The translations under genes were made by a program, and so were the position numbers. Below the pieces are notes generated by a model. That model saw nothing but the letters and a program-made list of their open reading frames with translations. It had not been told where the DNA came from and did not search any database. From IMG/VR virus record IMGVR_UViG_3300028048_002245: DNA of 56,767 nucleotides. The stretch is one strand, 5' to 3'. The DNA is from an uncultured virus (IMG/VR IMGVR_UViG_3300028048_002245). Its lineage: Duplodnaviria > Heunggongvirae > Uroviricota > Caudoviricetes. This document shows positions 12,091 to 56,278 of the stretch, in pieces (positions within the stretch are counted from its first letter, which is position 1; each line of letters starts with the position of its first letter).

Positions 12091-12106
12091 GAAAGGAGTA
12101 CGACCT

Positions 12107-18894: not shown

Positions 18895-18999
18895 ATGACA
18901 TCTCCAAGTGTCTACCATACCCCTCCAGATGCGGGGAATGGATTAAAAGGAATAATCATTCACCGCTTCTGGCTGCGGATAGCGGAACTATTGTCCGCA

Positions 19000-25196: not shown

Positions 25197-25271
25197 AATG
25201 ATTCTTCCTTTCTTTAAAACATCTGCCAGATTTTTCTCTCCTCTACTATATAGCCGTGAGAGAGGGCAGAA

Positions 25272-25786
25272 TCTGACGTTTTTACAAAACTTTTTTCATT
25301 TTTTCTATTCGGACTGTCGGACTGTTAATCCTGTCCGGTCCAGTCCGGCTTATCCCTGATCCTTATCATAACGTCTCCTTTCGTGTAACGATAAGAATAA
25401 TTCGCGATACGAATAACCCTTTCATGACACGAATAACCCTTTCATGATACGAAAAGAATAATTCGTGATACGAATAATTCTCTCGTGGTACAATAGTTCT
25501 TCTTCCTCTCTATCTCTGACGTTTTTACAAAACTTTTTTCATTTTTTCTATTCGGACTGGTCGGACTGTTAATCCTGTCCGGTCCAGTCCGGCTTATCCC
25601 TGATCCTTATCATAACGTCTCCTTTCGTGTAACGATAAGAATAATTCGCGATACGAATAACCCTTTCATGACACGAATAACCCTTTCATGACACGAATAA
25701 CCCTTTCATGACACGAATAACCCTTTCATGATACGAAAAGAATAATTCGTGATACGAATAATCCTCTCATGGTACGATAGTTCTTC
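25272..25786. repeat. Tandem ~243-bp duplication containing 20-bp iteron-like repeats
   Basis: Units start at 25272 and 25515; ACGAATAACCCTTTCATGAY occurs twice in unit 1 and four times in unit 2. Confidence 0.9.
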
Positions 25787-25992
25787 TTTCTTTCTATTTA
25801 TCCACACCCAGAAGCGGGATATTTTTACAGTAGATTTTTATTTTTTTCTTTTCCTTTACTATATAGCTATGGGAGAGAACGGAATCTGACGTTTTTTGGA
25901 AAAATTTTGCTTTCCACTATACACGACTTTTTCCCTTCTATATCTTCCGTCAAAGAAAAAGCCAGAAAACCGTACCCCTGCTCAAAAAATTT

Positions 25993-26047
25993 GTTAGTTG
26001 CAAGTTAGTCTCAAGTTAGTTGCAAGTTAGTCGCAAGTTAGTCGCAA
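25993..26047. repeat. 11-bp tandem repeat x5 (GTTAGTYKCAA)
   Basis: GTTAGTTGCAA GTTAGTCTCAA GTTAGTTGCAA GTTAGTCGCAA GTTAGTCGCAA. Confidence 0.9.
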
Positions 26048-26229
26048 GTTGGCATTAAAATAATGACTGATTTATTTCGATTGAAACCATGTTTCTTTAT
26101 GGGGCGGGTAATTGACAGTTCGGAATAAGGGCTTCTTCCATATATAAAAAGAAGTCTTTTGTGTTTACATATTTTTATATTATGTTATAATATCATTATA
26201 AACAATCAGTTTAATGAAAGGAGAAAATA

Positions 26230-28338
26230 ATGTCCTATGTTCATCTTCATCTTCACACGGACTATTCAATACTCGATGGTCTTGGGAAGATAAAAGATTA
26301 TGTCAAAAGAGCAAAAGAGCTTGGCATGGACGCTCTTGCCATAACCGACCATGGAGTCGGATATGGTCTCGATGACTTCTATGACGAATGCAAGGCGGGC
26401 GGGATAAAGCCTATTCTTGGATGCGAGTTCTATGTAGCACCTGCTGACAGAAAATTAAAAGAGGCTGTTGACGGTGAGAGCTATTATCATCTGATACTGC
26501 TCGTAAAGAACGAGACAGGTTACAGAAACTTATGTAAGCTCATCACCCGCTCAAATACAGAGGGATTTTATAAAAAGCCCAGGATTGATTTTTCGCTGCT
26601 CAGACAATTTCATGATGGTCTTATATGTACATCTGCCTGCGTAGCAGGAGAAGTATCTAAAAAGATATTGAAAGGAGATGTGGAAGGAGCAGAAGAGACA
26701 GCCTTAAAATACAGAGATCTGTTTGGCGATGATTATTATCTGGAAATACAGAAACACGGTATCATGGATGAAGCGAAAGCTTTTCAGATTATCATACAGA
26801 TAGCAAGGAAGTATGATATACCTCTTATCTGTACTAATGACTGCCATTATGTATATCCTGAGGACAAGGAAGCTCACGACTGGCTTTTATGTATGCAGAC
26901 AAAAAGCAATCTTGACGATCCTGAACGTTTGCATTATGAAGGTGATTATTCATTACGGTCAGAAGAAGAAATGCGAAGTCTGTTCCCAAATCTTCCTGAT
27001 GCTTTTGATAATACCGTAAAGATTGCAGATAAATGTAACTTTGATTTCACCTATGCTCATAAGCCGTCGGATTACAGGATGCCAAAAGTCTTCATCCCGC
27101 CTGAGTATGGAAAAGACTATTTCCAGTATATGTCAGACGAAGCTTATAAGGGACTTGACTGGAGATATCCTGAAGGTCATCCTGAAAGGCAGCAGGCAGA
27201 AACACAGCTTGAGTACGAGCTTGGTATCATAAAGCAGATGGGATTTGCTGAATACTTTCTTGATACCAGAAAAACGATTATGTGGGCAAAGGCTCATGAT
27301 GTGCTTGTTGGTCCGGGAAGAGGATCCGGTGCAGGTTCGGTAAACAATTATTGTCTTGGGATTACCGACATCGACCCTATCAAGTACCACCTTATTTTCG
27401 AGCGTTTTCTTAATCCTGAACGTATATCCATGCCTGATATAGACGTAGATTACGAATTTGACAGGAAAGACGATGTGATAAAATCAGAGGCTGATTCAAA
27501 CGGCTTAGACCATTTTTCAAAGATACAGACATTCACGGCAATGCTTCCGAAAGGAGCGATAAAAGCCTGTATAAGAGTAGTCGGACTTCCACCGAAGATA
27601 GGAGATCATTTTTCAAAGATGATTCCCGATGATGCGAAAAGCCTTGAAGAAGCTATGCAGTTAAATCCTGATCTCAAAGAGGAAATTGAAGGTAATGAGG
27701 ATTACAGGAAGATATGGAATATAGCAACAAAGATACAGGGAACAAAGAGCGCAGTATCGACTCATGCATGTGGTCATATCCCAACTCCTGTTCCATGCGA
27801 AGACCTTTATCCATGTTCTGTAGATAAAAAGACAGGATATCTTGTATGCCAGTATAATATGGCAGAAGTAGAACATCTGGGCAACCTGAAGAAAGACCTT
27901 CTGATGCTCAGAAACCTTACCGTCATCTCATATGCAAGAAACGAGCTGAAGAAACAGGGTATAAATGTTCCTCTCTGGAATGAAGATATACTCAACGATA
28001 AGGAAACGCTTGCTATGCTGTCCAGAGGAGAGACAATGGGAGTTTTTCAGCTCGAAGGAGCGGGAATAACCCAGTTCATAAAAGAACTTCGCCCTGATTC
28101 CTTCGAGGATATCATAGCAGGTGTCTCTCTCTACAGGCCTGGACCAATGGATTTTATTCCTCAGTACGTTCAGGGAAAGCATCATCCTGAAACAATCCAT
28201 TATCTTGTTCCACAGTTAGAGCATATCCTGGAGCCTACATACGGTGTCATCGTATATCAGGAGCAGGTAATGCAGATTGTACGTGATCTTGCAGGCTTTT
28301 CAATGGGTCGTGCAGACGTAGTAAGAAAAGCGATGGGT
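26230..28338 (+). CDS. dnaE: DNA polymerase III alpha subunit, exon 1
   Basis: PHP domain HLHLHTDYSILDG, GPGRGSGAGS, catalytic MPDIDVD; ends RKAMG. Confidence 0.95.
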
Positions 28339-28924
28339 TGACCGAAAGGTTACTAGCCCGCCCATATGGAAACATATGGGGTAACATAAAGCTAAAACGG
28401 TGAAAGCATTATTTCTGTTATGTAATCTAATAAGGAGGTTGAATGAAGATTACAAAACAGGATAAGGAAAAAATTATTCAGATGTATAAAGATGGCATGA
28501 ATGGAGCTGAAATTGCTCGAATAGTACCGTTCAGTCATGATACTGTATGTAAGGTACTAAAAGATGCAGGTTTTAATCAGAAAAAAGTCGTTTTGATAAA
28601 TTAAGTTTCATAACAGAAGATGCTAATACCGTGGTAACTGTCTAAATTAAAAAGTAGCAGTACCGTAACGCATTCCTGCTGAACCTTCGCTGAAATGCGA
28701 AGAATATAATGCAGACAAGAGAGCTTTACACGATATGTATAGCATATCAGATACCGGGTACGCTCCGGATCTCCAAACGTACAAGCATACAAAGTATGTG
28801 ACGTGGGTGATAGTTTATGCTGGGCTGGGTCTGAACTGACAGACCGTATCAGGATATATCCTGTATGGGCGAAACCATAAGCTCCAGAACCAGAGGATAA
28901 AAAGCCTCTGGGATAACAGAACCG
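28339..28924 (+). ncRNA. Group I self-splicing intron in dnaE
   Basis: Exon ends in U (GGT), intron ends in G; splicing restores RKAMG-KKK; IGS GCCCG pairs with exon TGGGT; core-like motifs AAAACGGTGAA, CTAATACCGTG, GTAACGCAT / TATGCTG. Confidence 0.85.
28443..28604 (+). CDS. Intron-encoded 53-aa HTH peptide (homing endonuclease remnant?)
   Basis: RBS AAGGAGG; MKITKQDKEKIIQMYKDGMNGAEIARIVPFSHDTVCKVLK; flanked by inverted repeat TTCTGTTATG / CATAACAGAA. Confidence 0.55.
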   Translation: MKITKQDKEKIIQMYKDGMNGAEIARIVPFSHDTVCKVLKDAGFNQKKVVLIN

Positions 28925-30319
28925 AAAAAAAAGATGGATATAATGCTTGCCGAGAAGAAAAATTTCATCTACGGCAACGACGAACTGAATATACCTGGAT
29001 GCATAAAGAACGGCATATCTGAAGAGAATGCCGAGACTATTTATAACCAGATGATAGACTTTGCAAAGTATGCTTTCAACAAATCCCATGCAGCAGCCTA
29101 TGCTGCTATATCAATGGAGACTGCATACCTGAAGTGTCATTACCCGGTCGTATATATGGCAGGTCTCATGACTTCTGTATCAGATAAGACCGACAAGCTT
29201 GTAAAGTATGTGGCCGAATGCAGGAAGACAGGGATACAGATTCTTTCACCTGATATAAACAGTTCAAGAGTCGGTTTTACTGTCGAAGGAGATGGGATCA
29301 GATTCGGACTCAATGCCGTAAAGAAAGTAGGAGATGCAGTATCAGAAGAAGCCGTAAATGAAAGAAATAAAAACGGCAGATATGAATCAGTCATAGACTT
29401 TATAGAACGAAATCCTGACATCAACTCTGGAGCAATGGTCTCACTTGCTAATGCAGGTGCATTCTCGTTCGGATATTCAAGGAACAGCCTTTCCACATAC
29501 ATGAAGAGCGTGTATGTGGACAAAAAGAAAGAGAGCAAAAATCAGGTCGCAGGACAGATGTCTATCTTTGATCTTGCAGGATTCAGCAAAGCAGATGAGG
29601 ATGCTGATTATTTCAGACCTCTTCCTGAGTATGATAAAGAAATCCTCCTTAAAAAAGAGAAAGAAGCTACCGGAATGTATCTGTCAGGACATCCTCTTGA
29701 TGAATATGCCGAGGTACTTGATGAGGAAGATACTATCGAAGCATCGGACCTTGCAAAAGAGACTGATGATGAAGGAAATATCATATCAAACGGAACTGCA
29801 AAAGACGGGCAGAAAGCCACATTTGGCGGAATGGTAACAGAACGCCGTATAGTAACGACCAAGAAAGGCGAGCTGATGGCATTTGTAACTGTTGAAGGAC
29901 GTGACGGTCAGATTGATGTTGTAGTCTTCCCTAAGACATATCAGGAATGCAAGCAGCTAATTGGTACAGATGATGCCAAGGTTCTTGTAAAAGGCACTGT
30001 GAGCCTGTCTGAAGATAAAAATAACAGTATCCTTGCAGACAGCATAACAGTATTAAGAAAACCTACCCGTAATCTGTGGCTGCATCTGAAGGATAAGCAG
30101 TCATATTATGATTGCAGGGACAGGGTTATGGATATGGTTGCCAATAATCAAGGATATGACAATCTTCTCATCGTGATTGATGATTATGACGGAGATAAGA
30201 AAATAAGAAACATGGAAAGGATAGCAGATGCTGATTCTCTGAAAAGTTATCTGTCAAAGGAATTTGGAGAAGATAATGTTGCCATTACCAAGGCAAAATT
30301 GAAGAAACCCCGATGCTAA
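28925..30319 (+). CDS. dnaE: DNA polymerase III alpha subunit, exon 2
   Basis: FAKYAFNKSHAAAY, EKEATGMYLSGHPL, OB fold. Confidence 0.95.
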   Translation, partial: KKKMDIMLAEKKNFIYGNDELNIPGCIKNGISEENAETIYNQMIDFAKYAFNKSHAAAYAAISMETAYLKCHYPVVYMAGLMTSVSDKTDKLVKYVAECRKTGIQILSPDINSSRVGFTVEGDGIRFGLNAVKKVGDAVSEEAVNERNKNGRYESVIDFIERNPDINSGAMVSLANAGAFSFGYSRNSLSTYMKSVYVDKKKESKNQVAGQMSIFDLAGFSKADEDADYFRPLPEYDKEILLKKEKEATGMYLSGHPLDEYAEVLDEEDTIEASDLAKETDDEGNIISNGTAKDGQKATFGGMVTERRIVTTKKGELMAFVTVEGRDGQIDVVVFPKTYQECKQLIGTDDAKVLVKGTVSLSEDKNNSILADSITVLRKPTRNLWLHLKDKQSYYDCRDRVMDMVANNQGYDNLLIVIDDYDGDKKIRNMERIADADSLKSYLSKEFGEDNVAITKAKLKKPRC

Positions 30320-30680: not shown

Positions 30681-32251
30681 CTCACTAATACCCACGGGCA
30701 AGCCCGTGGGGTTGCAGTAGAAATACTGTAACCCTGAGTGAGTAGCCTAAGTGCTTTAAGCACTACGTTAAGAGAGAATATATAGGTACTTTGGAATGTA
30801 GTACCAAGTTCCAAACACTACGGTCTGTGATTAAACAGCTCTGAGGTATAGGAGCAGTGTTGCAGACACATAAACCTCTCATTAACATTGGCGATGGTAC
30901 ACTAACCACCCTTCGGGGTGAGTAACTAAAACCTTTTAAGGTTTTAAGAAAGGAGTACGACTTATGGTCTATGTATTATCAAAAACCGGACAGCCTTTAA
31001 TGCCTACAGAAAACCATGCTAAAGTACGTATTCTTTTAAAGCAAGGTAAGGCAAAGGTAGTACACCGCTGTCCGTTTACAATACAACTGTTGTATAGTAG
31101 CACGAACTATACACAAAAGGTAACTTTAGGCATAGATAGTGGAAGTAAGCATATTGGTCTTTCAGCAACTACAAAGGATAAAGTATTATTTGAGTCTGAT
31201 GTAGAGCTTAGAAACGATATTGTAGACTTACTTTCTACTCGTAGAGAATTAAGGCGTTCCCGCAGGAGTCGTAAACTCCGTCATCGTAAACCAAGATTTG
31301 ATAATCGCAGACGTGGTAAGGGGTGGTTAGCACCTTCTGTAAAACAAAAAGTAGACTCTCACATTACAATGATAGCCAAAGTACATAAAATACTGCCTAT
31401 CTCGGATATCGTAGTAGAAGTAGCCTCTTTCGATATACAAAAGATTAAAGATCCTACCATAAGTGGGGACGATTATCAACATGGCGAACAATTAGACTTC
31501 TGGAATGTGCGTGAGTACGTCCTCTTTCGTGACGGACACAAATGTCAATGCTGCCACGGAAAATCAGGAGATAAAATTTTAAATGTACATCACATTGAAA
31601 GCCGTAAGATAGGCAGCAACGCACCTAACAACCTGATCACACTATGTGAAACCTGTCATACCGGGTATCATAAAGGAACCGTAAAACTACCTAAGACAAT
31701 ACATAGAGGAATGTCTTTTAAGGACGCTACGTTTATGGGTATCATGCGTTGGGCTTTGTATGGGAAACTTAAGTCTATATATCCAGACGTAAAACTTACT
31801 TACGGATATATTACTAAAAACGTTCGTATAAAAAACGGCTTGCCAAAGGATCATTACATAGATGCTCGTTGTATTAGTGACAATCCTAACGCTGTCAGTA
31901 ACGGAGATGTTTATTATTATAAAAAAGTTCGTTGCCACAACAGGCAGATACATAAGAATACCATCCTTAAAGGTGGTTATCGCAAACGTAATCAGGCACC
32001 GTATGAAGTTAAAGGTTTTAGGCTTTTTGATAAGGTGCAGTGGAAAGGATGTAAGTGTTTCATCTTTGGCAGACGTTCTACAGGGCGTATGGACTTGAGG
32101 CTTTTAGACGGAACGCATGTTAACGCATCTGTAGGATATAAGAACCTGAAGCTGCTAAAAATGCGTAGTAGTTATCTTATAGAACAAAGAAAGGTAGGTT
32201 AAAGGCGGTTCCTCCCATGGGCAAGCCCATGGGTTTCCCCGCCAAAAATAT
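30681..32251 (+). mobile_element. IscB-encoding IS element (copy 2) with omegaRNA at ~30681-30950
   Basis: Same ends and omegaRNA as 11823-13394; followed by ATGA. Confidence 0.9.
30964..32202 (+). CDS. iscB: IscB RNA-guided endonuclease
   Basis: PLMP, RuvC, bridge helix, HNH; close paralogue of 12107-13345. Confidence 0.95.
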   Translation: MVYVLSKTGQPLMPTENHAKVRILLKQGKAKVVHRCPFTIQLLYSSTNYTQKVTLGIDSGSKHIGLSATTKDKVLFESDVELRNDIVDLLSTRRELRRSRRSRKLRHRKPRFDNRRRGKGWLAPSVKQKVDSHITMIAKVHKILPISDIVVEVASFDIQKIKDPTISGDDYQHGEQLDFWNVREYVLFRDGHKCQCCHGKSGDKILNVHHIESRKIGSNAPNNLITLCETCHTGYHKGTVKLPKTIHRGMSFKDATFMGIMRWALYGKLKSIYPDVKLTYGYITKNVRIKNGLPKDHYIDARCISDNPNAVSNGDVYYYKKVRCHNRQIHKNTILKGGYRKRNQAPYEVKGFRLFDKVQWKGCKCFIFGRRSTGRMDLRLLDGTHVNASVGYKNLKLLKMRSSYLIEQRKVG

Positions 32252-39595: not shown

Positions 39596-39912
39596 CTCAC
39601 TAATACCCACGGGCAAGCCCGTGGGGTTGCGGTAGAAATACTGTAACCCTGAGTGAGTAGCCTAAGTGCTTCGGGCACTACGTTAAGAGAGAATATATAG
39701 TTACCTGTGGATGTAGTACCAAGTCCGCAGCTCTAAGACAAGTGATTAAACAATTCTGAGGTATAGGAACAGTGTTGCTTGTATAAAACCTCTTATTAAC
39801 ATTGGCGATGGTACACTTACCTCTCTTCGGAGAGAGTTATTAAATCCCTTATAGGATTTCAAAAGGCGGTTTCTCCCACAGGTAAGCCTGTGGGTTTCTC
39901 CGCCAAAATTTT
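39596..39912 (+). mobile_element. Non-autonomous IscB element retaining the omegaRNA but lacking iscB
   Basis: Both ends and omegaRNA scaffold similar to 11823-12090; followed by ATGA. Confidence 0.85.
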
Positions 39913-40423: not shown

Positions 40424-40772
40424 CTCTGAAATAACCAAAATTTAGCAAAGAAAAAGAAGTGTCGTGGTATATCATAGTCCTCAGATGGAAAACAGGATAA
40501 GCAGAAGGAGATGTTTTTTATGGTAGTAAAAATGACAGAATGGGCAGGAATGATGCTCCTTGCAATAGCTTTTTCAAGATTTCTGATGATAGTGACCAAT
40601 TCTGATCCGGATTCCGTATGGGACGCTACAACAAAAGCTGAAGACAAGGTCATGGGTTTTCTGGGAAACATACGAGATCCTGCTTAAAAAGCAAAAAATA
40701 AGAACAAAAACTATTTACATATAAGCGTAATATGATATAGTTATATCTGTCAAGAGGAAATGATTTCTCTAT

Positions 40773-40846
40773 GGACCATTAGCCCAACTGGTCAGAGCAG
40801 GCGGCTCATAACCGCTCGGTTCGGGGTTCGAATCCCCGGTGGTCCA
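40773..40846 (+). tRNA. tRNA-Ile2/Met (CAT)
   Basis: Cloverleaf GGACCAT..GTGGTCCA, anticodon loop CTCATAA, GTTCGAA T-loop; overall sequence resembles Firmicutes tRNA-Ile2. Confidence 0.9.
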
Positions 40847-40919
40847 TTTGCAGGATATATCCACCTTTCCTGGCAGTCCGGGTAATGGCGGACTGTTGAC
40901 AACGATATATCCTGTGCAA

Positions 40920-41291
40920 GGGCCTGTAAAGGTTTCGACGGTGGGTTGAAAACTTAATATGCGTGCCAGTCTGGAAGATCTGTAAAACTTCCACCCAAAT
41001 GTAAACGACGAAAATCGTGAGTACGCTTTTGCTGCCTGAGTAATCAGACATGCTCCTCCCGTTAAGAGGATAAGCTCCATGGATATCACCGCTGTAATCC
41101 ACGGAGTTAAATGAAGCGGTTATACAGAGGCAGCCATGCCGTAATAAACCTCTGAAGAATTTCTTATTCCGGCACAGACGAATACACATTGCCTGTTCTG
41201 TGTACCGTCCAAGCATGGGAACAGTGATACGCACGTAGTATATTATGTGATTAGATTGCATCGGACACGGGTTCGACTCCCGTCAGGTCCA
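40920..41291 (+). ncRNA. ssrA: tmRNA
   Basis: 5' GGGCCTGTAAAGGTTTCGAC; 3' GGGTTCGACTCCCGTCAGGTCCA with G3-U70 pair; tag ORF DENREYAFAA* at 41007-41039. Confidence 0.92.
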
Positions 41292-41357
41292 CTTAGCGTG
41301 ATAAATGACAGGTCAAAGGGACCCCTGAATATCCATACCAGGGTTTTAACCTGTAAT

Positions 41358-41430
41358 GCTCGTGTAGCTCAGCCGGTAGAGCACGTGACTTTTAATCACG
41401 GTGTCGAGGGTTCGATCCCCTCCACGGGCA
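41358..41430 (+). tRNA. tRNA-Lys (TTT)
   Basis: Cloverleaf GCTCGTG..CACGGGCA; anticodon arm CGTGA-CTTTTAA-TCACG. Confidence 0.92.
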
Positions 41431-41749
41431 CTTGGGGACTGCGATCATCAGTATCGTATCCCCGCTTTGACATGAAACTCCTTTCCGTAGCGGTCAACAA
41501 CCGCTATACCTGCATGGTGTATACGAAGAGTATATCAGTGGTTCGACTCCCTGACAGGTATTTGCCCGTATTATCAGACGGGCAAGGATATTTTTATATT
41601 CTCCCCCTATAAAGCGGTTAATAGCCGTAGTGCGGTGGCAGACCCGATTCTCTTCACCCTACTTTGGAATCATCAGGTGCAACTCCTGAACCGCACATTT
41701 ATGTCTTTGTAATGGCTTTGTACATAAATTGTACAGCAGAGGCATATCG

Positions 41750-41910
41750 CTCACTAATACTCACAGACAAGCCTGTGGGGGGGTGTCTAACAGCCCTGAG
41801 TGAGTAGTCTAAGCTCTGAACAGGGGCTACGTTAAGAGAGAAAACAGTTCTTGAGGTATAGGGGGTGGTTTCTCCCACGGATAAACCTGTGGGTTTCCCG
41901 CCAAAATTTT
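41750..41910 (+). mobile_element. Internally deleted IscB-element derivative
   Basis: CTCACTAATA start, partial omegaRNA, distal hairpin, followed by ATGA. Confidence 0.75.
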
Positions 41911-41961
41911 ATGATTCATTTTTCATCGAGTTCTCCTTAAGAAATCGGGCTTATCTGAAGC

Positions 41962-42136
41962 ACGAAGCTTACCGCATCTTCCGATGCGGGGAATAGGCTA
42001 AAATCTATGTAGGGCGGGGACCGCCCGAACTAAAGCCTGTGGAGCTGGCTCTGACGGGGTATACCTTTAGCGGGGTATGCTAGTTACCACCAGTCTTGAA
42101 GCAGGAAGCTCGGCTACTTGTAGCCGAGTAGTTCAC
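41962..42136 (+). mobile_element. Orphan IS605 right end / TnpB omegaRNA scaffold
   Basis: Closely similar to 48556-48728; terminal hairpin CTCGGCTACTTGTAGCCGAG and TAGTTCAC end. Confidence 0.8.
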
Positions 42137-42157
42137 GCGATAACAAGGAATACAGAC

Positions 42158-43843
42158 ATGAATGATACAATAACAGCCAGAAAATATGATATCAGTCTGG
42201 TAAAGATAGCTTCATATACAATGAAAGCCCGCCTTTATCCGAACATACATCAGGAAAAATATATGCAGGCCATCTTGGATGGTATAAGAAAAGCCAGCAA
42301 CGGGACAAAATACTGTCTTAAAAACCATCTGTATCCCGAACTTGAAAAGCCGGGAAAAGACGGCGTGACAATGTTCCCAGACTGGAAGTACATCGGAAGC
42401 AGTGCATGGCTTGAAAAGCTGAGAGACCTTTATCCGGGGATCAGAGGCATAGTTCCGGGAGCCTCACTTTCATCAAGCGTCGGCGGAGCGATAGCCTGCG
42501 ACCTGAAAAAGGGATGGGAAAAGCTCGGAAAGCTGCCTACCGACAAGTGGATGAATCTTAAAGACAAAAAGGGAAGACCTCGGGTAAAGAACTATTGTAA
42601 AAGATTTCCGAGGACAAGTTTCTGGATACAGATACCGACAGACAGGATCAAATATGTTGACGAGAAGCACGTATGGATAAACCTTTTCCCAACAAAGAAG
42701 TTCGAAGATGACACTCCTTTTGGCAGAATAAGAATCCGTGGATGGAACAGCAAGATCACGTTTGATGAAAACGGATCTCCTGTACCCGTACAGAAGAATG
42801 TCGGAGTAAGAATTTCGATAAATGCCTGCGGAGAGTGGTATATAGCATTTTCTTTCCAGAATGCATACAGACCTGTAAAAGTAAGAACGGACATTGAGAG
42901 AACGCCTATAGGCATCGATCCCGGCATCAAGTATTCCCTTACGGATTCCGACGGGGAACACTATGAGAACAGGAGACACAAGGAACGCCTGCAGGATCAG
43001 ATAAACTTCTACAAAGATCAGATGAGCAGAAGGCAGGGGTCGTGTAACGCAGAGTTCAGAAAAAACCGTAAGGAAGCCTGGAAATGGAATGATGAGCATA
43101 AGGAAGAGATCGAAGCAGGAAAAGCAGAAAGAAAATCTGTAGCAGAGTCAAAACGATACCTGAAGGCAAAATACAGGGCAGCCCGTCTTGAAAAGAAGGC
43201 TGTTGACAGAAGGAATAACGACCAGGGAGTTATGACCTCAGAGATCATCGCGAAAGCTTCGCATCTGTATCTTGAATCGCCTGACATAAAGGCAATAATG
43301 CAGGATCAGGAGATGGGCATTCTGGCAGCTGACGCTGCTATGGGTGAAAACCTTCTGAAGCTCAAATATAAGGCTGAATGGAGCGGTATAGGATATCACG
43401 CCATAGACAGGGAAGCACCATCGACACAGAAATGTTCGGCGTGCGGATATGTCTTAAAAGATGATGAAAAGCTGAAACTAGGAGACAGGGAATTTATATG
43501 CCCGGTCTGCGGTCATAAAGAAGACAGAGACGAAAACGCTGCAAAAGTCATACTCGCTACAGGTAAACAGGAAGAAGCTGACGGCATTCCGTCATACGTA
43601 CCTCCGAAGGAAAAGCCTGTAAGAGAATATAAGGATACTCCAGTATCGAAAAAGCATCCTGACGTATTCGTTCATTTCAGCAATGAGATGAAGGAGGCAT
43701 ATAAAAATCCTTTTGTTCTTGTAGATAAGGATGGAAATGTGATCGATGATGCCCAGGGATACGGCTTTACAAAGGCTGCTGATGCGAGAAAGTATTGGAA
43801 TGACCATATAAGAAAGAAAAAGAAGGCAGCAGAAGCTGTCTGA
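42158..43843 (+). CDS. CRISPR-adjacent TnpB-derived RuvC effector (candidate compact Cas12-like), ~561 aa
   Basis: YTMKARLYP N-terminus, RuvC-I IGIDPG, RuvC-II YLES, zinc finger CSACG/CPVCG, RuvC-III DRDENAA; RBS AAGGA before ATG 42158; CRISPR array 191 bp downstream. Confidence 0.8.
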   Translation: MNDTITARKYDISLVKIASYTMKARLYPNIHQEKYMQAILDGIRKASNGTKYCLKNHLYPELEKPGKDGVTMFPDWKYIGSSAWLEKLRDLYPGIRGIVPGASLSSSVGGAIACDLKKGWEKLGKLPTDKWMNLKDKKGRPRVKNYCKRFPRTSFWIQIPTDRIKYVDEKHVWINLFPTKKFEDDTPFGRIRIRGWNSKITFDENGSPVPVQKNVGVRISINACGEWYIAFSFQNAYRPVKVRTDIERTPIGIDPGIKYSLTDSDGEHYENRRHKERLQDQINFYKDQMSRRQGSCNAEFRKNRKEAWKWNDEHKEEIEAGKAERKSVAESKRYLKAKYRAARLEKKAVDRRNNDQGVMTSEIIAKASHLYLESPDIKAIMQDQEMGILAADAAMGENLLKLKYKAEWSGIGYHAIDREAPSTQKCSACGYVLKDDEKLKLGDREFICPVCGHKEDRDENAAKVILATGKQEEADGIPSYVPPKEKPVREYKDTPVSKKHPDVFVHFSNEMKEAYKNPFVLVDKDGNVIDDAQGYGFTKAADARKYWNDHIRKKKKAAEAV

Positions 43844-43852
43844 TAATAAAAA

Positions 43853-43990
43853 ACGGTGAGGCTTAGCCACCGTGTAGTGCGAACCCTTAATACACATCAT
43901 GCCTGCGTGATGTTCGCACTACGAAATGTCTGGTCTACGGTCTTTTAATAGGCATAAAAACCTGTAACTGACCGGCAGGAAACAGACCGA
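43853..43990 (+). ncRNA. Candidate tracrRNA/scaffold RNA
   Basis: Stems ACGGTG/CACCGT, perfect GTAGTGCGAAC/GTTCGCACTAC, ACATCATG/CGTGATGT; loop CTTAAT complementary to the repeat 3' ATTAAG. Confidence 0.5.
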
Positions 43991-44034
43991 TACCATATAT
44001 TGACATGCGGATTATGCTATAACAGAATATTGCG

Positions 44035-44308
44035 GTTGCAATCCGCATGGATTATACGGATTAAGAGGATGTAAGAATGGTGAATTGTCTGCAAAGGATG
44101 TGTTGCAATCCGCATGGATTATACGGATTAAGAGAAGACTTCCTTTGTCTTTGTCAGCGATAGCTCTGGTTGCAATTCGCATGGATTATACGGATTAAGA
44201 GAAAAACTCCGACAAAAGCGACAATCTCGACAAGTTGCAATCCGCATGGATTATACGGATTAAGAGTTTAGTAAAGTTGCAGTCCGCATGGATTGTACGG
44301 ATTAAGAG
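44035..44308 (+). CRISPR. CRISPR array: 5 x 33-bp repeats, spacers of 34, 34, 32 and 9 nt
   Basis: Repeat GTTGCAATCCGCATGGATTATACGGATTAAGAG at 44035, 44102, 44169, 44234, 44276 (last degenerate); internal hairpin AATCCG/CGGATT. Confidence 0.93.
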
Positions 44309-44372
44309 ATGGCAATAGATTTATTTTCGGGAGCTGGTGGTTTGTATATAGGCTTTAAAAGCAGGATTCGAT
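44309..44372 (+). pseudogene. Fragment of a C5 DNA methyltransferase N-terminus
   Basis: AIDLFSGAGGLYIGFK (motif I FxGxGG), continuing as AGFD after a frameshift; then cut by an inverted IS end. Confidence 0.6.
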
Positions 44373-44590
44373 ATGAACCTCACATGACTAAAGTCGCAGG
44401 TGTTGGCCTGCTGAATTATAAAAAAGCCACCCGGCGTGACCAGGTGGTTAAGAGGGGGAGTATGAAAAACGAAAACAATTTTCAGCTAATACTATAGCAG
44501 AATGTTTCAGATTTTGCAAGACTAAATTGCAGATTTTTTCAAATTTATTAGAAACGGGAAAGTCTGCATCATACAGATTGGGAAAAAAGA

Positions 44591-44791
44591 ATGAGGTACA
44601 GCGATATAAGAGCACGTATACTTGCTTCCATGGCAGAGCAGCGACATAATTATGCGTGGCTTGCTGATAAGACCGGGTATCCAGAAAAGTCAGTAAAGAT
44701 GTGGCTCGCAGGAGCAAAGGAGCCGAAGGTGAGCATTCTTATAAGTATGCTTGCAACACTCGGACTAAGACTTAATGTTGAAAAGGAATGA
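44591..44791 (+). CDS. XRE-family HTH protein
   Basis: LADKTGYPEKSVKMWLAGAKEPKVS. Confidence 0.75.
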   Translation: MRYSDIRARILASMAEQRHNYAWLADKTGYPEKSVKMWLAGAKEPKVSILISMLATLGLRLNVEKE

Positions 44792-45663
44792 GGAAAGGCA
44801 GAAAGATGGATAAAGACGAACTCGCCAAAAAGATGAAAGTTATCGTACAGAGCGAAGAAGACGCACTCAACAGTATGACTGATGAAGAGATGGAAAAAGA
44901 AGCAGTATCATGGTATGAAGAAAATCCGAATAATTTTTCAAAGTGGTTTCCAAAGATAAAAGACTGTGGTATGCTTGTTCCGAAGTCAAAGGTTTTCAAA
45001 GTTCCGGGAAGGGTGATACAGGCATTTTTTGACCCGGTGCGTCCGGAAGAGGATAAGATCATAACCGAATGGGTAAGAGGTACCGTCATGTCGAGCATAA
45101 AGGATATGACCGCATTCCTTTTCATAAAAAACGGAACGTTCTCAGATAAATTTAATTTTAATGAAGGATGTTTCTGCCGAAAGAGCCTTCACGAGTTGGT
45201 AACACACATAACAAACATATGCTATGATGCAGAGCTCTGTGGGGCGGGCGGACTGTCTGAAATAGTCATAAGAGAATTCATTGGGACGCCTTACTACATC
45301 GAGAACAATATCCCGTGTATCTACAATGGCATGCCTTTGAGGCCTGAATTTAGGGTTTTTTATGACTTTGACAACAGAGAAGTTCTCTATTCGGTATTTT
45401 ACTGGGATTATGACTACTGCCACAAAGACATAGAAAAAAACGCCACAGACAGGATCATATATGACAGCGTGTACAACAATATCAAAGGGTTCTATGATGC
45501 TCATGCCCACGATGTGGAAGATATAATCGCAACACACATGAAAACTGTTGATATGACGGGCAAGTGGTCTGTGGACGTTATGTACAACGAAGAAGATAAA
45601 ACATACTGGCTCATAGACATGGGAACAGCACAGGCATCTGCATATTGGAAGGAAAAGGATTGA
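44788..45663 (+). CDS. Hypothetical protein (ATP-grasp-like motifs)
   Basis: FIKNG, VIREFI, PEFRVF, WSVDVM..WLIDM pattern. Confidence 0.6.
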   Translation: MRKGRKMDKDELAKKMKVIVQSEEDALNSMTDEEMEKEAVSWYEENPNNFSKWFPKIKDCGMLVPKSKVFKVPGRVIQAFFDPVRPEEDKIITEWVRGTVMSSIKDMTAFLFIKNGTFSDKFNFNEGCFCRKSLHELVTHITNICYDAELCGAGGLSEIVIREFIGTPYYIENNIPCIYNGMPLRPEFRVFYDFDNREVLYSVFYWDYDYCHKDIEKNATDRIIYDSVYNNIKGFYDAHAHDVEDIIATHMKTVDMTGKWSVDVMYNEEDKTYWLIDMGTAQASAYWKEKD

Positions 45664-45834
45664 AGCTCCCCTCTGCTAAAGCAGAGGGGATTCTATATAT
45701 CCAAAAATATAAAATTTGTAAAAAAGTAAAAAATGTAATGATTTTGTAATATTTGCTGTATAATATCTCCTGTAACCACATCTGATATAACCCTTTATGG
45801 GGAAGTTCAGACAGACGAGTTAAAGGAGATATTT

Positions 45835-46917
45835 TTGAAGTTTCAGAAAGTAAAACAGATTCTATTAAGTGTGATAATAATCACAGGTTCCGTTGCAGTT
45901 CCCATGAATGTGTCGGCAGATGCCGTGACAGGCATGACAGAAAGTGTCCAGTCAGTACCTGTTGTAACGGAGATATCGGATGACAGGACGGTGACTGGTG
46001 ATAACAGCCATATCACAGATGAAGTCAGGGATATGCTCAATGACCTGTTTGAAAAAGACAAAGACGGAAATGTTATTGCGGTTCATACGGGAATAAGCTG
46101 GCAACAGAAGATATATGACATACTAGGCAGTGAACCAGAGGATGAGCAGACAGATGCAAAGGCAGATGATAAGAAAGTGAAATCTGACAAGGAGCTTTCT
46201 GATAAGCCTGATACTAATGAATATCATTATAAGTATGTACCTGACGGTGGCAGTCTTAACCCATTCAATGGTGTCTATTATGGACCGTCAGGCAGGGAGA
46301 CATACTATAACCTTGATATGAGCCGTGTAGTCTATTATATGAAGGTTATGGGTATAGACAAGAAGTACTGGGTAAGAGATGACGGGGTAAAGATGTATGG
46401 CGACTACGTGATGTGTGCTGCCAACCTTGATCTGAGACCAAAGGGAACCATAGTGCAGACTTCACTTGGAAAAGGCATCGTTGTAGATACGGGCGGTTTT
46501 GCCTACGGAAATGGAGAAGGAGGCAGACATCAGCTTGATATTGCAGTCGCCTGGGGCAGTAGCAGCTGTGGAAAAGCAAAGAGATCTGAAGACAACAAAA
46601 AAAATAATCTTACCGAAGAAGAAAAAAATTCCAATAAAAAGCTGAAAAAAGAACAAAAAAAGACTGAGAAAGCCAAAAATAATAAGAAAAAAGACAATAA
46701 AATAAAATCTGGCAAAGATAAAAATAATGAGGTGGAAACAAAAGACAGAGCAACTGCAAAGAACAGGGAGCAGGAGTCTGAAGTCCCAGGTCAGACAAAA
46801 ACTACAGAAGATAATACAACGAGTACTGACGATGTAACGGGCAGCAGTACTGAATTTTCTGATTCGGACGATATTGTTGAAACAGAAAATACGGATTCTG
46901 TCACAGAATACCATTGA
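45835..46917 (+). CDS. Secreted protein with 3D-like (cell-wall) domain and Lys/Thr-rich tail
   Basis: Signal peptide; YVMCAA..RPKGTIVQTSLG.GIVVDTGG..LDIAV. Confidence 0.6.
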   Translation: MKFQKVKQILLSVIIITGSVAVPMNVSADAVTGMTESVQSVPVVTEISDDRTVTGDNSHITDEVRDMLNDLFEKDKDGNVIAVHTGISWQQKIYDILGSEPEDEQTDAKADDKKVKSDKELSDKPDTNEYHYKYVPDGGSLNPFNGVYYGPSGRETYYNLDMSRVVYYMKVMGIDKKYWVRDDGVKMYGDYVMCAANLDLRPKGTIVQTSLGKGIVVDTGGFAYGNGEGGRHQLDIAVAWGSSSCGKAKRSEDNKKNNLTEEEKNSNKKLKKEQKKTEKAKNNKKKDNKIKSGKDKNNEVETKDRATAKNREQESEVPGQTKTTEDNTTSTDDVTGSSTEFSDSDDIVETENTDSVTEYH

Positions 46918-47040: not shown

Positions 47041-47451
47041 ATGAACAAATATACGCATGGACGTACCTGTGTCTATAACATAAATTACCATATCGTCTGG
47101 TGTGTAAAGTATCGTCGCAAAGTGCTGTCACAAAAAATATCTGAACGGCTTTATGAACTCTGCCATGAGATTGCCAAAGCAAAAGGCTTTACAGTCGTAG
47201 AGGTTAAAGTCGGCGAGAATGATCATGTACACTGTTTCGTATCTGCTCCGCCAAAGATATCCATCACCCAGATCGTAAAATACCTGAAAGGCATATCAGG
47301 CAACAGGCTACTGGAAGAATTTCCTGAACTCCGTAAATCTTTATGGAAAGGGCATCTCTGGAACGGCAGTTACTTTGTTGAGACTATTGGCTCCACATCC
47401 GAGGATAACATCAGACGCTACATCGAAAGGCAGAAAAACGTCCAGTTATGA
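47041..47451 (+). CDS. tnpA: IS200/IS605 transposase TnpA
   Basis: Protein identical to 15880-16290. Confidence 0.95.
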   Translation: MNKYTHGRTCVYNINYHIVWCVKYRRKVLSQKISERLYELCHEIAKAKGFTVVEVKVGENDHVHCFVSAPPKISITQIVKYLKGISGNRLLEEFPELRKSLWKGHLWNGSYFVETIGSTSEDNIRRYIERQKNVQL

Positions 47452-48590
47452 ACAAAGCATACGTTTACAGGCTGTATCCTACAGCCGACCAGAAAATCTT
47501 ATTTGCAAAGACCTTCGGGTGCTGCCGCAAGATCTGGAATCTCATGCTAGGTGACCGCATAGATGCCTACAACGATTATGGGATAACCCTGCTCCCGACA
47601 CCTGCATGGTATAAATCAGATGACAGGTATTCGTACCTCAAAGAAGTAGACTCCCTTGCACTTGCAAACGTACAGCTGGCATTGCAGAAAGCTTACAAAG
47701 CTTTCTTTGATGGTATAGCAGAGTTCCCGAAATTCAAGTCAAAACGCCGTGCAAAACTGTCATACACTACCAATAACCAGGGCGGGACCATCTCTGTTGC
47801 GGATAATGCTGTCCGTCTTCCCAAAGTCGGCATGGTAAAAGCCAAGATCCATAGAAATGCTCCTTCCTATATGGTGTTAAAATCCGCTACTATATCATGC
47901 GACAAGTGTGGCGGATACTATGTTTCCATACTTTATGAGTATGACAGGGCTGATATCTTTAGCAATACCCATACATCTGACGACCCGGAAAAACTTCTGG
48001 GACTTGATTACAAGTCAGACGGTCTGTACGTCGATTCCGAGGGCAGATGTGCCGATATGCCGCACTTCTACCGTAAGGCTCAGAAGAAGCTGAAACACCT
48101 CCAACGGGAACTGTCACGCAAAGTCGGTTCAAAGAAGGGCGAGACACCTTCCCACAACTTTGAAAAACAGCTTGCCAGAGTCCGTAAACAATACAGGCAT
48201 GTGGCAGACCAGAGACGTGACTATCTCCAGAAGCGGTCAACCGCCCTTGCTGATGAGTACGACCTTATCGGGACAGAAGACTTATCACTCAATGGGATGT
48301 CATCTTCCAAAGGACTGGGGCTGGGGAAAGCAACAAACGATAACGGCTTTGGTATGTTTATCCAGATGCTTGCCTACAAAATGGCCGACAGAAATAAACA
48401 CCTCATAAAGGTAGGCAGAGCTTTTCCGTCAAGCTAGCTGTGTCAGTGTGGCTATAAGAATCCGATAACCAAGGATCTCTCTGTCCGCACTGTTGTATGT
48501 CCTGTATGTGGCCGTATATATGACAGGGATGTGAATGCAGCCATAAACATCAGAAACGAAGCTTACCGTATCTTCCGATGCGGAGAATAG
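47448..48590 (+). pseudogene. tnpB: tnpB with in-frame TAG before the zinc finger/RuvC-III
   Basis: FPSS*LCQCG...[15 protein letters not shown] continues in the same frame after TAG at 48435. Confidence 0.85.
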
Positions 48591-48749
48591 CTTTATCCAT
48601 GTAGGGCGGGAACCGCCCAAACTAAAGCCTGTGGAGCTGGCTCTGACGGGACATGCCTTTAGCGGGGTATGCTAGTTACCACCAGTCTTGAAGCAGGAAG
48701 CTCGGGAACTTGTTCCCGAGTAGTTCACTTTTCAAGCAGCTCGTCTTCA

Positions 48750-51450: not shown

Positions 51451-51787
51451 TCCGGTCGCTCCTCCCACCGCCTAAAGGCAGTGGGCTTCCGCTCCCTCAA
51501 AATTTGGTGAACCTCACACGACTAAAGTCGCGGGTGTTAGCCTGCTTTAAGAAAAGCATCCAGAATTACCTGGTATGCGGTCGTGGTCGTGCTTCTGGTT
51601 TATCCGGAAACACGTCCAGCGTTCAGACATTATGCAGATATACTCATATCATATCTGCTCGGAACTCACTCAGTTCCGACAGGATTTGCCAGCCGCTGGA
51701 CATATCTGATATGGCAGCAGCTGGTATTCCCTGTCAGATGGTTAGTCGGGCTGTTACCGTTCTAAAATTTTTTGGGTTATTTTAGGA

Positions 51788-54640: not shown

Positions 54641-56278
54641 AATTATTCTGACGGCGGAAACTCCGATGCTTTAGCATCGGGGTGGAGCCGTCTTTATCCT
54701 TTCTTTTGTTAAGTGTTGTTCTCTGGTACGATATATCTGTCCACCATATATCCGCTACAAGGCTGTATCATATGTATTTTTTTGCAGCTGACGGAACCGT
54801 TGTTTACTTTACCTGTACCATTAAAGAGCCTTATGTCAAAATATCCTGTTTTACGTCTGCCAAAAATGAAGTAATGGCTCCAGCCTTTGTATGATACATG
54901 GTCAAAGAGCCTGAAGCCTTTTATCTCATATTCAGCCTGATTACGTTTTCTGATACCGTCCTTAAGTATTTTAGCTTTGTGTATCTGCCTGTTGTGGCAT
55001 CGTATCTTTCTATATGCATACACTACGTCACCATCTTTACAGGTGCTCTTGGCATCTGGATGACCACTTATGCATCTGGCATCTATGTAATGGTCTTTTG
55101 GCAGATTATGTTCTATCCTTGTATTCTTGGTGATGTATCCGTATGTCAGATGTACATCAGGATACAATCCTTTCAGCCTGTCATTGAGCGCCCAACGCAT
55201 GATACCCATGAATGTGGCATCCTTAAAGCTCATGCTACGGTGTATCGCTTTTGGCAGCTTCACAACTCCCATATGGTATCCTCTGTGACACGTTTCGCAC
55301 AAGGTTATCAGGTTGTTCGGTGCATTACCGCCGGTCTTTCGGCTTTCGATATGATGGACGTTAAGTATCTTATCGCCTGACTTACCGTGACAGCACTGAC
55401 ACTGATGACCATCCCTGAAGAGTACATATTCTCTTACGTTCCAGAAGTCGAGCTGTTCACCTTTCTGATACTCGGTGCCCTGAATATCCGGGTTCTTTAT
55501 CTTCTGGATGTCAAAAGACGCAACTTCAACTGTTATTTTTGTTATTGGCAGTATCTCATGTACTTTTTGCACTGCCGTAAGATGTGTCTCGACTTTTTCT
55601 CTTACTGATGGAGCAAGCCATCCGTCCCCACGCCTGCGGTTATCGAAGCGTGGTTTTCTGTATCTTGTTTTGCGGCTCCTTCTGCTCCGTCGGTACTCGC
55701 GCCTTGTGGAAAGTTCATCCACTATATCATTTCGCAGCTGTATATCAGCTTCAAACAGGACTTTTGTCTCCGTAGTTGCCGACAAGCCTATGTGTCTGCT
55801 TCCTGCGTCTACCCCAAGACTTATATCCTGCGTATATTCCGTACTGTCATACAGAAGTCTTATCGTGAATGGATACCTCCTGACTGTCTCTGCCTTTTTA
55901 GTCTTTAACAGGATACGGACTTTTGCATGGTTTTGTGTAGGCATCAGAGGCTTGTTATCTTTACTCAAAACGTAGACCATTAGTCTGCATCCTCCTTTCC
56001 TAGTATTAGAGCACTAAGGTTCTAGCTTCTCACTCCTAAGAGTGGTCATCGTACCATCGCCAATGTTATCGGAAGGTTTATATGTCAGCAGCACTGTTCC
56101 TACCTCACAGAGCTGTTTAACCACTGACCGCAGTGTTCAGAGCTTGGTACTACACCCTGAAGTGCCTGTATATTCTTCCGTAACGTAGTTCTTTAAGAGC
56201 TTAGGCTATTCAATGTGGGATTATGAGTTGGCAAAGCCTTCTCATAATCCCCTATGCTTTAGCATAGGGGTCGTTGAA
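54641..56278 (-). mobile_element. IscB-encoding IS element (second family) with omegaRNA at ~55990-56278
   Basis: Ends TTCAACGACCCCTATGCTAAAGCATAGGGG and CCGATGCTAAAGCATCGG; followed by ATGAA. Confidence 0.88.
54709..55980 (-). CDS. iscB: IscB RNA-guided endonuclease
   Basis: PLMP, GVDAGS, bridge helix, HNH, HYIDARCI. Confidence 0.95.
   Translation of the reverse strand: MVYVLSKDNKPLMPTQNHAKVRILLKTKKAETVRRYPFTIRLLYDSTEYTQDISLGVDAGSRHIGLSATTETKVLFEADIQLRNDIVDELSTRREYRRSRRSRKTRYRKPRFDNRRRGDGWLAPSVREKVETHLTAVQKVHEILPITKITVEVASFDIQKIKNPDIQGTEYQKGEQLDFWNVREYVLFRDGHQCQCCHGKSGDKILNVHHIESRKTGGNAPNNLITLCETCHRGYHMGVVKLPKAIHRSMSFKDATFMGIMRWALNDRLKGLYPDVHLTYGYITKNTRIEHNLPKDHYIDARCISGHPDAKSTCKDGDVVYAYRKIRCHNRQIHKAKILKDGIRKRNQAEYEIKGFRLFDHVSYKGWSHYFIFGRRKTGYFDIRLFNGTGKVNNGSVSCKKIHMIQPCSGYMVDRYIVPENNT

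Follow-up and report, generated by a model that had tools for sequence, protein, structure and literature searches.

A probable stand-alone TranC-type CRISPR module, divergent from LaTranC, in an insertion-sequence-saturated stretch of DNA

We analyzed a 56.8-kb stretch of DNA from an uncultured virus (IMG/VR record IMGVR_UViG_3300028048_002245; 56,767 nucleotides (nt), hereafter the window) that carries a gene for a TnpB-derived nuclease followed by a predicted scaffold RNA and a short CRISPR array. We read this locus, with a probability of about 0.85, as a stand-alone, type V-like CRISPR module of TranC type, related to LaTranC but divergent from it. The reading stands on membership in a protein family, a conserved layout of gene, scaffold and array, and covariation in the RNA; from these we infer a mechanism. 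Systems of this kind were published in 2025 with solved structures, and the window copy is a new, divergent TranC. Its main parts are as follows.

42158-43843, plus strand: effector gene, a TranC-type TnpB-derived RuvC nuclease of 561 amino acids (aa), from the open reading frame (ORF), homology and a structure model
43844-44034, plus strand: predicted region of a tracrRNA-like scaffold (tracrRNA: trans-activating CRISPR RNA); z -4.9 when folded with repeat 1
44035-44308, plus strand: CRISPR array of five 33-nt repeats (44035-67, 44102-34, 44169-201, 44234-66 and 44276-308)
44068-101, 44135-168, 44202-233 and stub 44267-275, plus strand: array spacers of 34, 34, 32 and 9 nt

The effector and its relatives

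When the effector was compared with the Protein Data Bank (PDB) using phmmer, the top match was LaTranC (9jfq_A, 575 aa; E = 3e-54), over query residues 14-548 and including the C-terminal extension (approximately residues 480-561). TnpBs (~1e-15 to 1e-19), Cas12n (9j09; 1e-13) and Cas12f (~5e-4) ranked lower. An AlphaFold2 (AF2) model built on 28 family sequences (predicted local distance difference test, pLDDT, 84) also retrieved 9jfq_A first in Foldseek (E = 3e-35, template modeling (TM) score 0.71/0.83, 30% identity), followed by 9jfo_A and, at ranks 3 and 4, the TnpBs of ISFba1 and ISDra2. Cas12f reached TM scores of 0.45-0.62, compared to 0.71-0.83 for LaTranC, and Cas12m and others were also much weaker.

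TranCs have been described as TnpB-derived transposon-CRISPR intermediates in which the guide RNA is split into a tracrRNA plus a crRNA (CRISPR RNA), according to the available passages of several articles (PMC13565253, PMC13639567; further passages in bioRxiv 10.1101/2025.09.28.678669). LaTranC (Jin et al., Cell 2025, 188:6283; PDB 9JFO, 9JFP, 9JFQ) is reported in the accessible parts of this literature to cleave DNA, to edit genomes and to use a 5′-TTC protospacer-adjacent motif (PAM). In the portions available of a later preprint (bioRxiv 10.64898/2026.03.27.714800), TranC clade 11 is characterized by expanded REC and WED domains, an elongated and structured C-terminal domain, arrays of 3-17 repeats (median 5) that are 32-36 bp long (median 33), a tracrRNA located between the effector and its array, and the absence of Cas accessory genes; Cas12f is a dimer, while clade 11 is reported as a monomer. 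Because the preprint says that this monomeric state was reported in the Cell paper, we take LaTranC to be a clade 11 member. All anatomical traits described in those portions for clade 11 (for example, for RuTranC11) match the window locus, a comparison made by description only.

The window locus resembles LaTranC and other TranCs in its homology over residues 14-548, its fold (TM 0.83), its size (~560-575 aa), its adjacent short array, the scaffold RNA between gene and array, and the lack of both adaptation genes and TnpA. It differs from LaTranC in that it belongs to a sister group (group A, below), while the LaTranC-like loci L037 and L042 fall in group B; in its 33-nt repeat with a strong internal hairpin and its shorter anti-repeat, which ends just 16 nt before repeat 1; and in lying in an insertion-sequence-dense region rather than among housekeeping genes. 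A preliminary description of this DNA, made from the sequence alone, had allowed that novelty of the system would lapse if the protein fell inside an already characterized Cas12 subtype. Since it lies in a characterized group (TranC, with LaTranC at E = 3e-54 and TM 0.83), the claim of novelty fails. The description's broader proposal, a miniature Cas12-like system or TnpB-to-Cas12 intermediate, is borne out by LaTranC as closest characterized relative, by arrays throughout the family and by scaffold-repeat covariation. Identity with Cas-delta was considered and rejected; the available descriptions give Cas-delta as 867-936 aa and tracrRNA-free.

As the preliminary description had noted, the ~561-aa ORF retains the three RuvC acidic residues and a zinc finger. 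The triad, D254 (in IDPG), E373 (YLES) and D458 (DRDENAA), is invariant across a 28-sequence family alignment, as are the zinc-finger residues C426, C429, C448 and C451. An alternative upstream ATG at 42077 would give 588 aa. Because this ATG falls within an unrelated insertion-sequence end fragment (41962-42136), and because a pig-gut variant of the locus departs from the window sequence upstream of 42137, we placed the start at 42158. The effector exceeds the window's TnpBs (417 and 394 aa) by 144-167 aa, in line with the ~140-180 aa first estimated. It has near-nil similarity to them (best local E = 0.003), in agreement with the divergence first described, and its gene is single-copy in the window.

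The intact catalytic residues are the visible sign of a putative RNA-guided, PAM-dependent cleavage of double-stranded DNA. The protein might instead be a guide-RNA-directed binder or regulator that does not cut, like TldR, Cas12m or Cas12c, as nuclease-dead repressors have arisen repeatedly among related TnpB and Cas12 lineages, according to the part of a review available. We regard this as very unlikely: the three acidic residues are invariant in 28 members and the nearest characterized relative is reported, in the text available, to cut DNA.

We compared the effector with profile collections, a placement against Cas12 and TnpB models that the preliminary description had proposed. The only Pfam match was to the Cas12f1-like TNB domain (1e-17). 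The general NCBIfam guided_TnpB model was passed (132 bits, cut-off 100), while the curated Cas12 models were far from satisfied (c2c8, 31 bits against a cut-off of 350, E = 1.4e-7; Cas12f2, 16.8 against 450), as were the element-specific TnpB models (IS200_TnpB, 111 against 425 bits; IS607_TnpB, 85 against 350). PADLOC returned Cas12u4 (1.8e-24) and Cas12f (2e-24), and PHROGs labels relatives of the effector 'transposase'. The PADLOC scores, the c2c8 match and the appearance of Cas12f and Cas12m in the Foldseek results would fit an older Cas12 subtype (Cas12f/V-F, Cas12n/V-U4, Cas12m/V-U1 or c2c8) rather than TranC. Cas12f and Cas12n (V-N, formerly V-U4) are indeed similar in kind, as miniature, TnpB-derived, tracrRNA-dependent type V effectors with an array and a single RuvC site. 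However, all curated cut-offs were missed by a wide margin, plain window TnpBs scored equally well or better on the same PADLOC models, and both the structural similarity to Cas12f and the sequence match to Cas12n were much weaker than those to LaTranC. Assignment to one of these subtypes is thus highly improbable.

A word-indexed search returned 55 proteins at E ≤1e-10, 35 of them at E ≤7e-39 and mostly of 540-564 aa, with a gap between this family and the TnpBs (5e-17). An exhaustive search of 1.84 billion entries gave 31 representatives at E ≤1e-30, 1401 at 1e-10 and 7537 at 1e-3. With only 31 representatives among 1.84 billion, the family is rare. In a quick tree of 64 rows (from which rows <380 aa and the 99% identical twin P0002 were left out), supported by the Shimodaira-Hasegawa-like approximate likelihood ratio test (SH-aLRT) only, the family formed one clade (45 rows, SH-aLRT 99) on a long branch from the TnpBs. 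Group A (19 rows, SH-aLRT 93) includes the window protein, with P0012 as sister (SH-aLRT 99), and group B (24 rows, SH-aLRT 100) includes L037 and L042. By score, LaTranC goes with group B, as it matches L042 with 728 bits and L037 with 656, compared to 284 for L029 and 188 for the window protein.

Six of the family loci come from species-representative genomes and 60 from metagenomes. The six are metagenome-assembled genomes (MAGs) labelled Oscillospiraceae, Eubacterium, Faecalibacterium, Limiplasma, Faecousia and Clostridiales. One locus (L028) is a 5631-nt stretch identical to the window on a 23.7-kb contig and provides no independent evidence. A single-protein search found no close relatives of the effector in viral or genome contigs. 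No full-length relative was found in the viral contigs: of 21 loci recovered there, 19 matched only the C-terminal motif described below and 2 were TnpB-like. Against isolate phages, tblastn with the effector gave only ordinary TnpB-level matches (~25% identity), and megablast with positions 41000-46000 gave no match.

A series of proteins of 430-495 aa (P0061-P0086) matches residues ~15-470 with 31-38% identity (E = 1e-57 to 1e-30). All of them lack the C-terminal domain, and the series could represent either the nearest TnpB ancestors or a further clade of TranC. When one of them (P0061, 433 aa) was searched against 401 genomes of the order of G005, the only full-length match was the TranC of G005 itself; all other matches were plain TnpBs.

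The array and the scaffold RNA

The window repeat is GTTGCAATCCGCATGGATTATACGGATTAAGAG, with two variants. The preliminary description was correct in placing five 33-bp repeats 191 bp past the gene (a gap of 43844-44034), while its spacer lengths of 32-34 nt hold for three spacers, the fourth being the 9-nt stub. As that description also stated, each of the three repeat substitutions, one in repeat 3 (C9>T) and two in repeat 5 (A7>G and A20>G), lies at a paired position of the minimum-free-energy hairpin and yields a G-U pair. Since pairing with the anti-repeat is kept too, these changes cannot discriminate the hairpin from anti-repeat pairing, and as structural evidence they are weak.

We determined whether relatives keep an array, as the preliminary description had suggested. 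A locus was assessable if the 3′ end of the gene and at least ~375 nt downstream were present (n = 28); loci with a contig end near the gene or a fragment match were not (L006, L034, L050, L051, L055-L057, L059-L062 and the weaker L063-L069). Among the assessable relatives, 27 of 28 carry two or more repeats of 32-33 nt, starting 176-297 nt past the stop codon. The layout of gene, scaffold and array is thus not due to chance. The repeat ends are conserved family-wide (5′ G..(G/A)CAA; 3′ (A/G)..G.AAG). Two relatives are degenerate: L053 keeps the scaffold and a single partial repeat, and in L001, which has no array, the gene is truncated before the third RuvC motif. Used as a 30-nt pattern, the repeat had no match in IMG/VR viral contigs. 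At the end of the L002 contig (G002:C278, positions 34-127), two extra TranC-type repeats occur ~2.9 kb past the first array, after an HNH-domain gene and a 530-aa ORF; they may represent a second array. A 62-aa ORF that begins at the last window repeat (44309) was rejected as without support.

To describe the RNA, we aligned 13 loci, applied RNAalifold and then counted pairs. All elements are on the plus strand.

43853-43873: stem 1 hairpin, with compensatory changes at 5 of 6 pairs
43862-43866 with 44061-44065: pseudoknot between the stem 1 loop, CTTAG, and TTAAG at repeat positions 27-31 (repeat 1), with compensatory changes at 5 of 5 pairs
43874-43922: stem 2, near-invariant GTGCGAAC...GTTCGCAC with an inner hairpin (stem 43877-43884 with 43912-43919), from RNAalifold and pair counts
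43928-43987: stem 3, a variable branched hairpin predicted for the window sequence only, as it is not alignable across the family
43988-44018: anti-repeat, core CATGCGGATT at 44004-44013, with 21 predicted pairs to repeat positions 4-28
44000-44028: sigma-70-like promoter match (TTGACA, 17 nt, CAGAAT), a consensus match only

In the pseudoknot, 98.5% of the alignment cells are paired, with 3-4 pair types per pair. For stem 1, pseudoknot and stem 2 together, 97.8% of cells are paired, compared to 31-52% when the 3′ partner was slid by 1-3 columns. Compensatory changes occur in 12 of 19 scaffold pairs, and none of 500 shuffles reached the covariation score. Because the sequences are related and the structure was drawn from the same alignment, the slid controls and the pair-type counts are the fairer evidence. 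The anti-repeat lies 16-47 nt before repeat 1 and pairs with repeat positions ~1-29 in 12 of the 13 loci, with L036 unclear. Its strength differs between the groups: several group B loci have a strong version (z -3.9 to -7.6), and in group A it is modest. These data suggest that the guide RNA of the window locus is split into a scaffold and a crRNA that pair with each other. A terminator-like hairpin at 43853-43873 was rejected as a terminator, as it is the conserved stem 1. If the sigma-70-like match were used, transcription of the array would start at about repeat 1.

A pseudoknot beside the guide is a feature of the right-end RNAs of TnpB, as seen in ISDra2 structures. We read the move of its 3′ strand into the repeat as a probable footprint of the RNA split. 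IS200/IS605 TnpBs with their omega RNAs (ISDra2, PDB 8H1J and 8EXA; ISFba1, 8IAZ) share with the window locus the RuvC and zinc-ribbon core (E ~1e-15), a guide at the 3′ end of a structured scaffold, and this pseudoknot. In contrast, the window effector is ~150 aa longer, its scaffold is apparently split into a trans RNA and repeats, many exchangeable guides replace one fixed, flank-derived guide, and there are neither TnpA nor transposon ends (the ends were not searched formally).

The effector could nonetheless be an ordinary mobile IS200/IS605 or IS607 TnpB, followed by repeats that are unrelated or due to chance: it passes guided_TnpB, carries the PHROGs label 'transposase' and lies in a window full of such elements. 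However, it scores far under both element-specific models, lacks an adjacent TnpA, is single-copy and is unlike the resident TnpBs. Moreover, arrays in 27 of 28 relatives and a repeat 3′ end that covaries with a scaffold loop already contradict this explanation, which we consider extremely unlikely.

A model that accommodates the TranC reading is as follows. The 561-aa protein would act as a TnpB-derived nuclease with a single RuvC site. The 191 nt past its stop codon would provide a tracrRNA-like scaffold, the counterpart of the 5′ portion of the right-end guide RNA of an ancestral TnpB, and the array would yield crRNAs of repeat-spacer form. The first two thirds of the repeat would pair with the anti-repeat and its terminal TTAAG with the stem 1 loop, such that the pseudoknot beside the guide would restore, from two molecules, the RNA that TnpB has in one piece. 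A 3′ guide derived from the spacer would lead the protein to PAM-flanked double-stranded DNA, which the RuvC site would cut. New spacers would join at the gene-proximal end, with adaptation presumably acting in trans.

Array turnover, adaptation and the weight of the evidence

The stretch with this locus occurs in 20 public runs, which belong to 10 studies and are recorded as bovine and pig gut; six of the runs are RNA libraries. We compared contigs from four of the 20 runs with the window locus. In run X10, repeat 1 is followed by other letters, another spacer, while a contig that reaches from repeat 2 through repeat 3 to repeat 4 keeps spacers 2 and 3. In run X12 (pig gut), 232 nt separate repeats 1 and 4, compared to 166 nt in the window, with spacers 1-3 uncovered; X12 keeps everything from repeat 4 through the 9-nt stub and repeat 5 into the sequence downstream. 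Run X16 has an additional 34-nt spacer between two repeats. Because the gene-proximal end varies while the distal end is fixed, the array turns over, as expected for leader-end acquisition. Relatives with the same repeat also carry different spacers: five loci with one repeat have 21 distinct spacers and six loci with another repeat have 40, none of them shared. In a third repeat group, 11 distinct spacers occur in 10 loci, some of them shared.

These comparisons bear on whether the locus is a decaying relic, a former TranC module that has become frozen or inactive in this element, its array collapsing. In favor of this are the very short array, with its degenerate last repeat behind a 9-nt spacer, the existence of degenerate relatives (L001 and L053) and the insertion-sequence debris adjoining the gene start. 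Against this, the intact ORF lacks none of its catalytic and zinc residues, all covarying pairs of the scaffold are preserved, and the gene-proximal end of the array varies between samples. The pig-gut variant shares the end made of repeat, 9 nt and repeat, so the stub is a fixed trailer of some age and not a recent collapse. Five repeats are also the median for such systems in the part of the published survey available. We therefore consider a relic unlikely.

None of the 63 window ORFs of at least 70 aa matched models of Cas1, Cas2 or Cas4, consistent with the absence of cas1 and cas2 noted in the preliminary description. Among 34 ORFs flanking 15 relatives, there were likewise no Cas1, Cas2 or Cas4 and no TnpA of the IS200/IS605 or IS607 type; these ORFs are mostly housekeeping genes, with a few defense-like ATPases, methylases and helix-turn-helix proteins, and one large serine recombinase near L041. 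Cas1 is encoded elsewhere in three of five MAGs that hold relatives. In those three, copies of the TranC-type repeat outside the array were limited to the contig that carries it and to another contig onto which that array continues. Thus, for the relatives, the concern raised in the preliminary description that the repeat belongs to a distant class 1 locus is not upheld. Since the window holds no adaptation genes, spacer acquisition presumably occurs in trans.

Several observations weigh against our reading. Identity between the effector and LaTranC is just 30%, and the window protein has the lowest LaTranC score among those tested (188 bits, with relatives at 284, 656 and 728). The PADLOC Cas12 models rate it no better than ordinary window TnpBs. 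The window anti-repeat is short (10 contiguous pairs, z -3.0), and 2 of 200 mononucleotide shuffles are as good. Full spacers number just three, and the array closes with a 9-nt stub and a degenerate repeat. A cas1-cas2 pair or a second array may lie outside the 56.8-kb window. Contigs from RNA-library run X3 are identical to 42108-44064 and 44035-44131, while 44192-44399 is uncovered by RNA-library contigs; the identity is compatible with transcription and no proof of it, and the gap carries no weight. Finally, searches of isolate phages, plasmids, the window and the retrieved loci turned up no protospacer; they did not extend to the large collections of viral and metagenome sequences. With blastn, the whole array (E ≤10) had chance-level matches in phages (20-28 nt, E = 3) and no match in plasmids, and the best spacer matches in the window and 27 loci had 10-12 mismatches. 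The use against competing mobile elements or the host that the preliminary description had suggested is therefore a proposal. On balance, the locus is a real and probably functional TranC-type mini CRISPR module.

TranCs are the clearest living evidence of the passage from TnpB to Cas12 and are sought as very small genome editors. The window locus adds a divergent member of a rare family, with 30% identity to the only solved structure (LaTranC). It also adds comparative proof that the last bases of the repeat and the loop of the first scaffold hairpin co-evolve as a pseudoknot, a trace of the RNA split, and natural evidence that the gene-proximal end of such arrays turns over with no adaptation genes nearby, posing the question of what machinery adds the spacers. 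A further addition is an unexplained link between the C-terminal domain of the family and small phage proteins. The known picture is unchanged by this locus, which provides concrete material for testing it.

The C-terminal motif and the genomic surroundings

The C-terminal domain of the effector (residues ~485-561; 43607-43840) contains the motif V-x-D-x-x-T/G-x-x-L/I-D-D-A-Q-G-Y/F-G-Y/F. The same motif is common to small proteins on large viral contigs, with 38-56% identity over 30-70 aa (loci L007-L016, L018-L022, L024-L027 and L070-L087). In 15 of 17 distinct extracted ORFs, it lies near the N-terminus of a 94-158-aa protein. Searches of Pfam, PHROGs and the ESM Atlas with the domain gave nothing usable, only a weak match to DUF1508 (E = 0.04). 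The motif could be a captured domain or a mimic.

The window has ~40% GC and is mobile-element-like and saturated with insertion sequences. It contains four HEARO RNAs, three with a full IscB (RRXRR and HNH; 11823-13345, 30681-32202 and 54709-56278) and one without an adjacent iscB (39596-39820), as well as at least four TnpBs and three IS200-type TnpAs. This density of RNA-guided transposon nucleases in 57 kb is unusually high. The TnpA nearest to the effector, a Y1 transposase at 47041, is part of a separate insertion sequence with its own TnpB. With no adjacent TnpA (element ends were not searched formally), the effector locus is no longer part of a transposon. The window also encodes an integrase, a C5 methylase, GGDEF and EAL proteins, a PARP-like protein, a CdiA-C-like toxin domain and many ORFs without family assignment. 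Just upstream of the effector, a cluster at 40772-41431 contains tRNA-Met, a transfer-messenger RNA (tmRNA; tag DENREYAFAA) and tRNA-Lys, and there are no other translation genes in the region. Large phages and some plasmids have such clusters. Genes for a capsid, portal, terminase or tail were not seen in the window, and neighboring proteins of 291 aa and of the DUF4317 family had no relatives in IMG/VR viral contigs. The window thus appears to be a mobile-element-like region for which a phage or a plasmid are candidate origins.

A broader scenario is that a large mobile element saturated with insertion sequences, either a jumbo phage or a megaplasmid from gut bacteria of ruminants and pigs, carries the TranC as cargo and uses it in conflicts with other mobile elements. 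The array would be updated by a borrowed host adaptation machine, though its repeat is unlike that of any host array, and the small phage proteins with the C-terminal motif could be mimics or decoys that interfere with TranC, or the source of the domain. We offer this only tentatively and regard it as doubtful. CauTranC9, a phage-borne TranC, is comparable in being carried by a mobile element without adaptation genes, and its array is said to target phages in the available portions of the preprint (bioRxiv 10.64898/2026.03.27.714800). According to the same portions, it differs in belonging to another clade and in being TnpB-sized, without expanded domains and with 38-bp repeats; the window, for its part, is a putative mobile element.

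The 726 nt upstream of the effector are structured (z -5.4), with no Rfam match. We rejected this region as part of the system, as it is insertion-sequence debris. Positions 41962-42136 are a solo 175-nt, 90% copy of 48556-48728, a stretch just after the TnpB at 47448-48437 that forms the right-end guide-RNA scaffold of an IS200/IS605 element (47041-48728); the copy ends 21 nt before the effector start codon. This piece is multi-copy in gut metagenomes (~10-fold depth, with many different continuations after 42136). Other copies are preceded by a TnpB-like coding end, D-I-N-A-A-I-N-I, and the piece is absent upstream of the gene in the pig-gut variant. Positions 41744-41842 and 41864-41914 resemble 5′ parts of HEARO RNAs (72-73% identity) and sequence just downstream of iscB (79-90%); 41744-41914 looks like a gene-less remnant of an IscB element, below Rfam detection.

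DnaE is encoded in two ORFs (703 and 461 aa) that lie ~590 nt apart within 26230-30319. The interruption may be an intron, another insertion or a true split. The best matches in phage collections are uncultured gut "Bacteriophage sp." records (46-47% identity). Upstream of dnaE, at 25033-26050, tandem repeat blocks have units of 10, 11, 20, 30 and 40 nt (for example, four 20-nt units at 98%); these iteron-like blocks may mark a replication origin. A 117-aa protein on the minus strand (18568-18918) matches the PADLOC entry 'Unk_01, unknown small protein sometimes fused to CARF' (2e-31). Just past the array, at ~44400-44483, a short element occurs at 5- to 6-fold depth in DNA runs, with contig breaks at 44452 and 44483. 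It contains a GC-rich hairpin that, on the minus strand, precedes a T run, and a 33-nt, 91% copy lies at 51514-51546.

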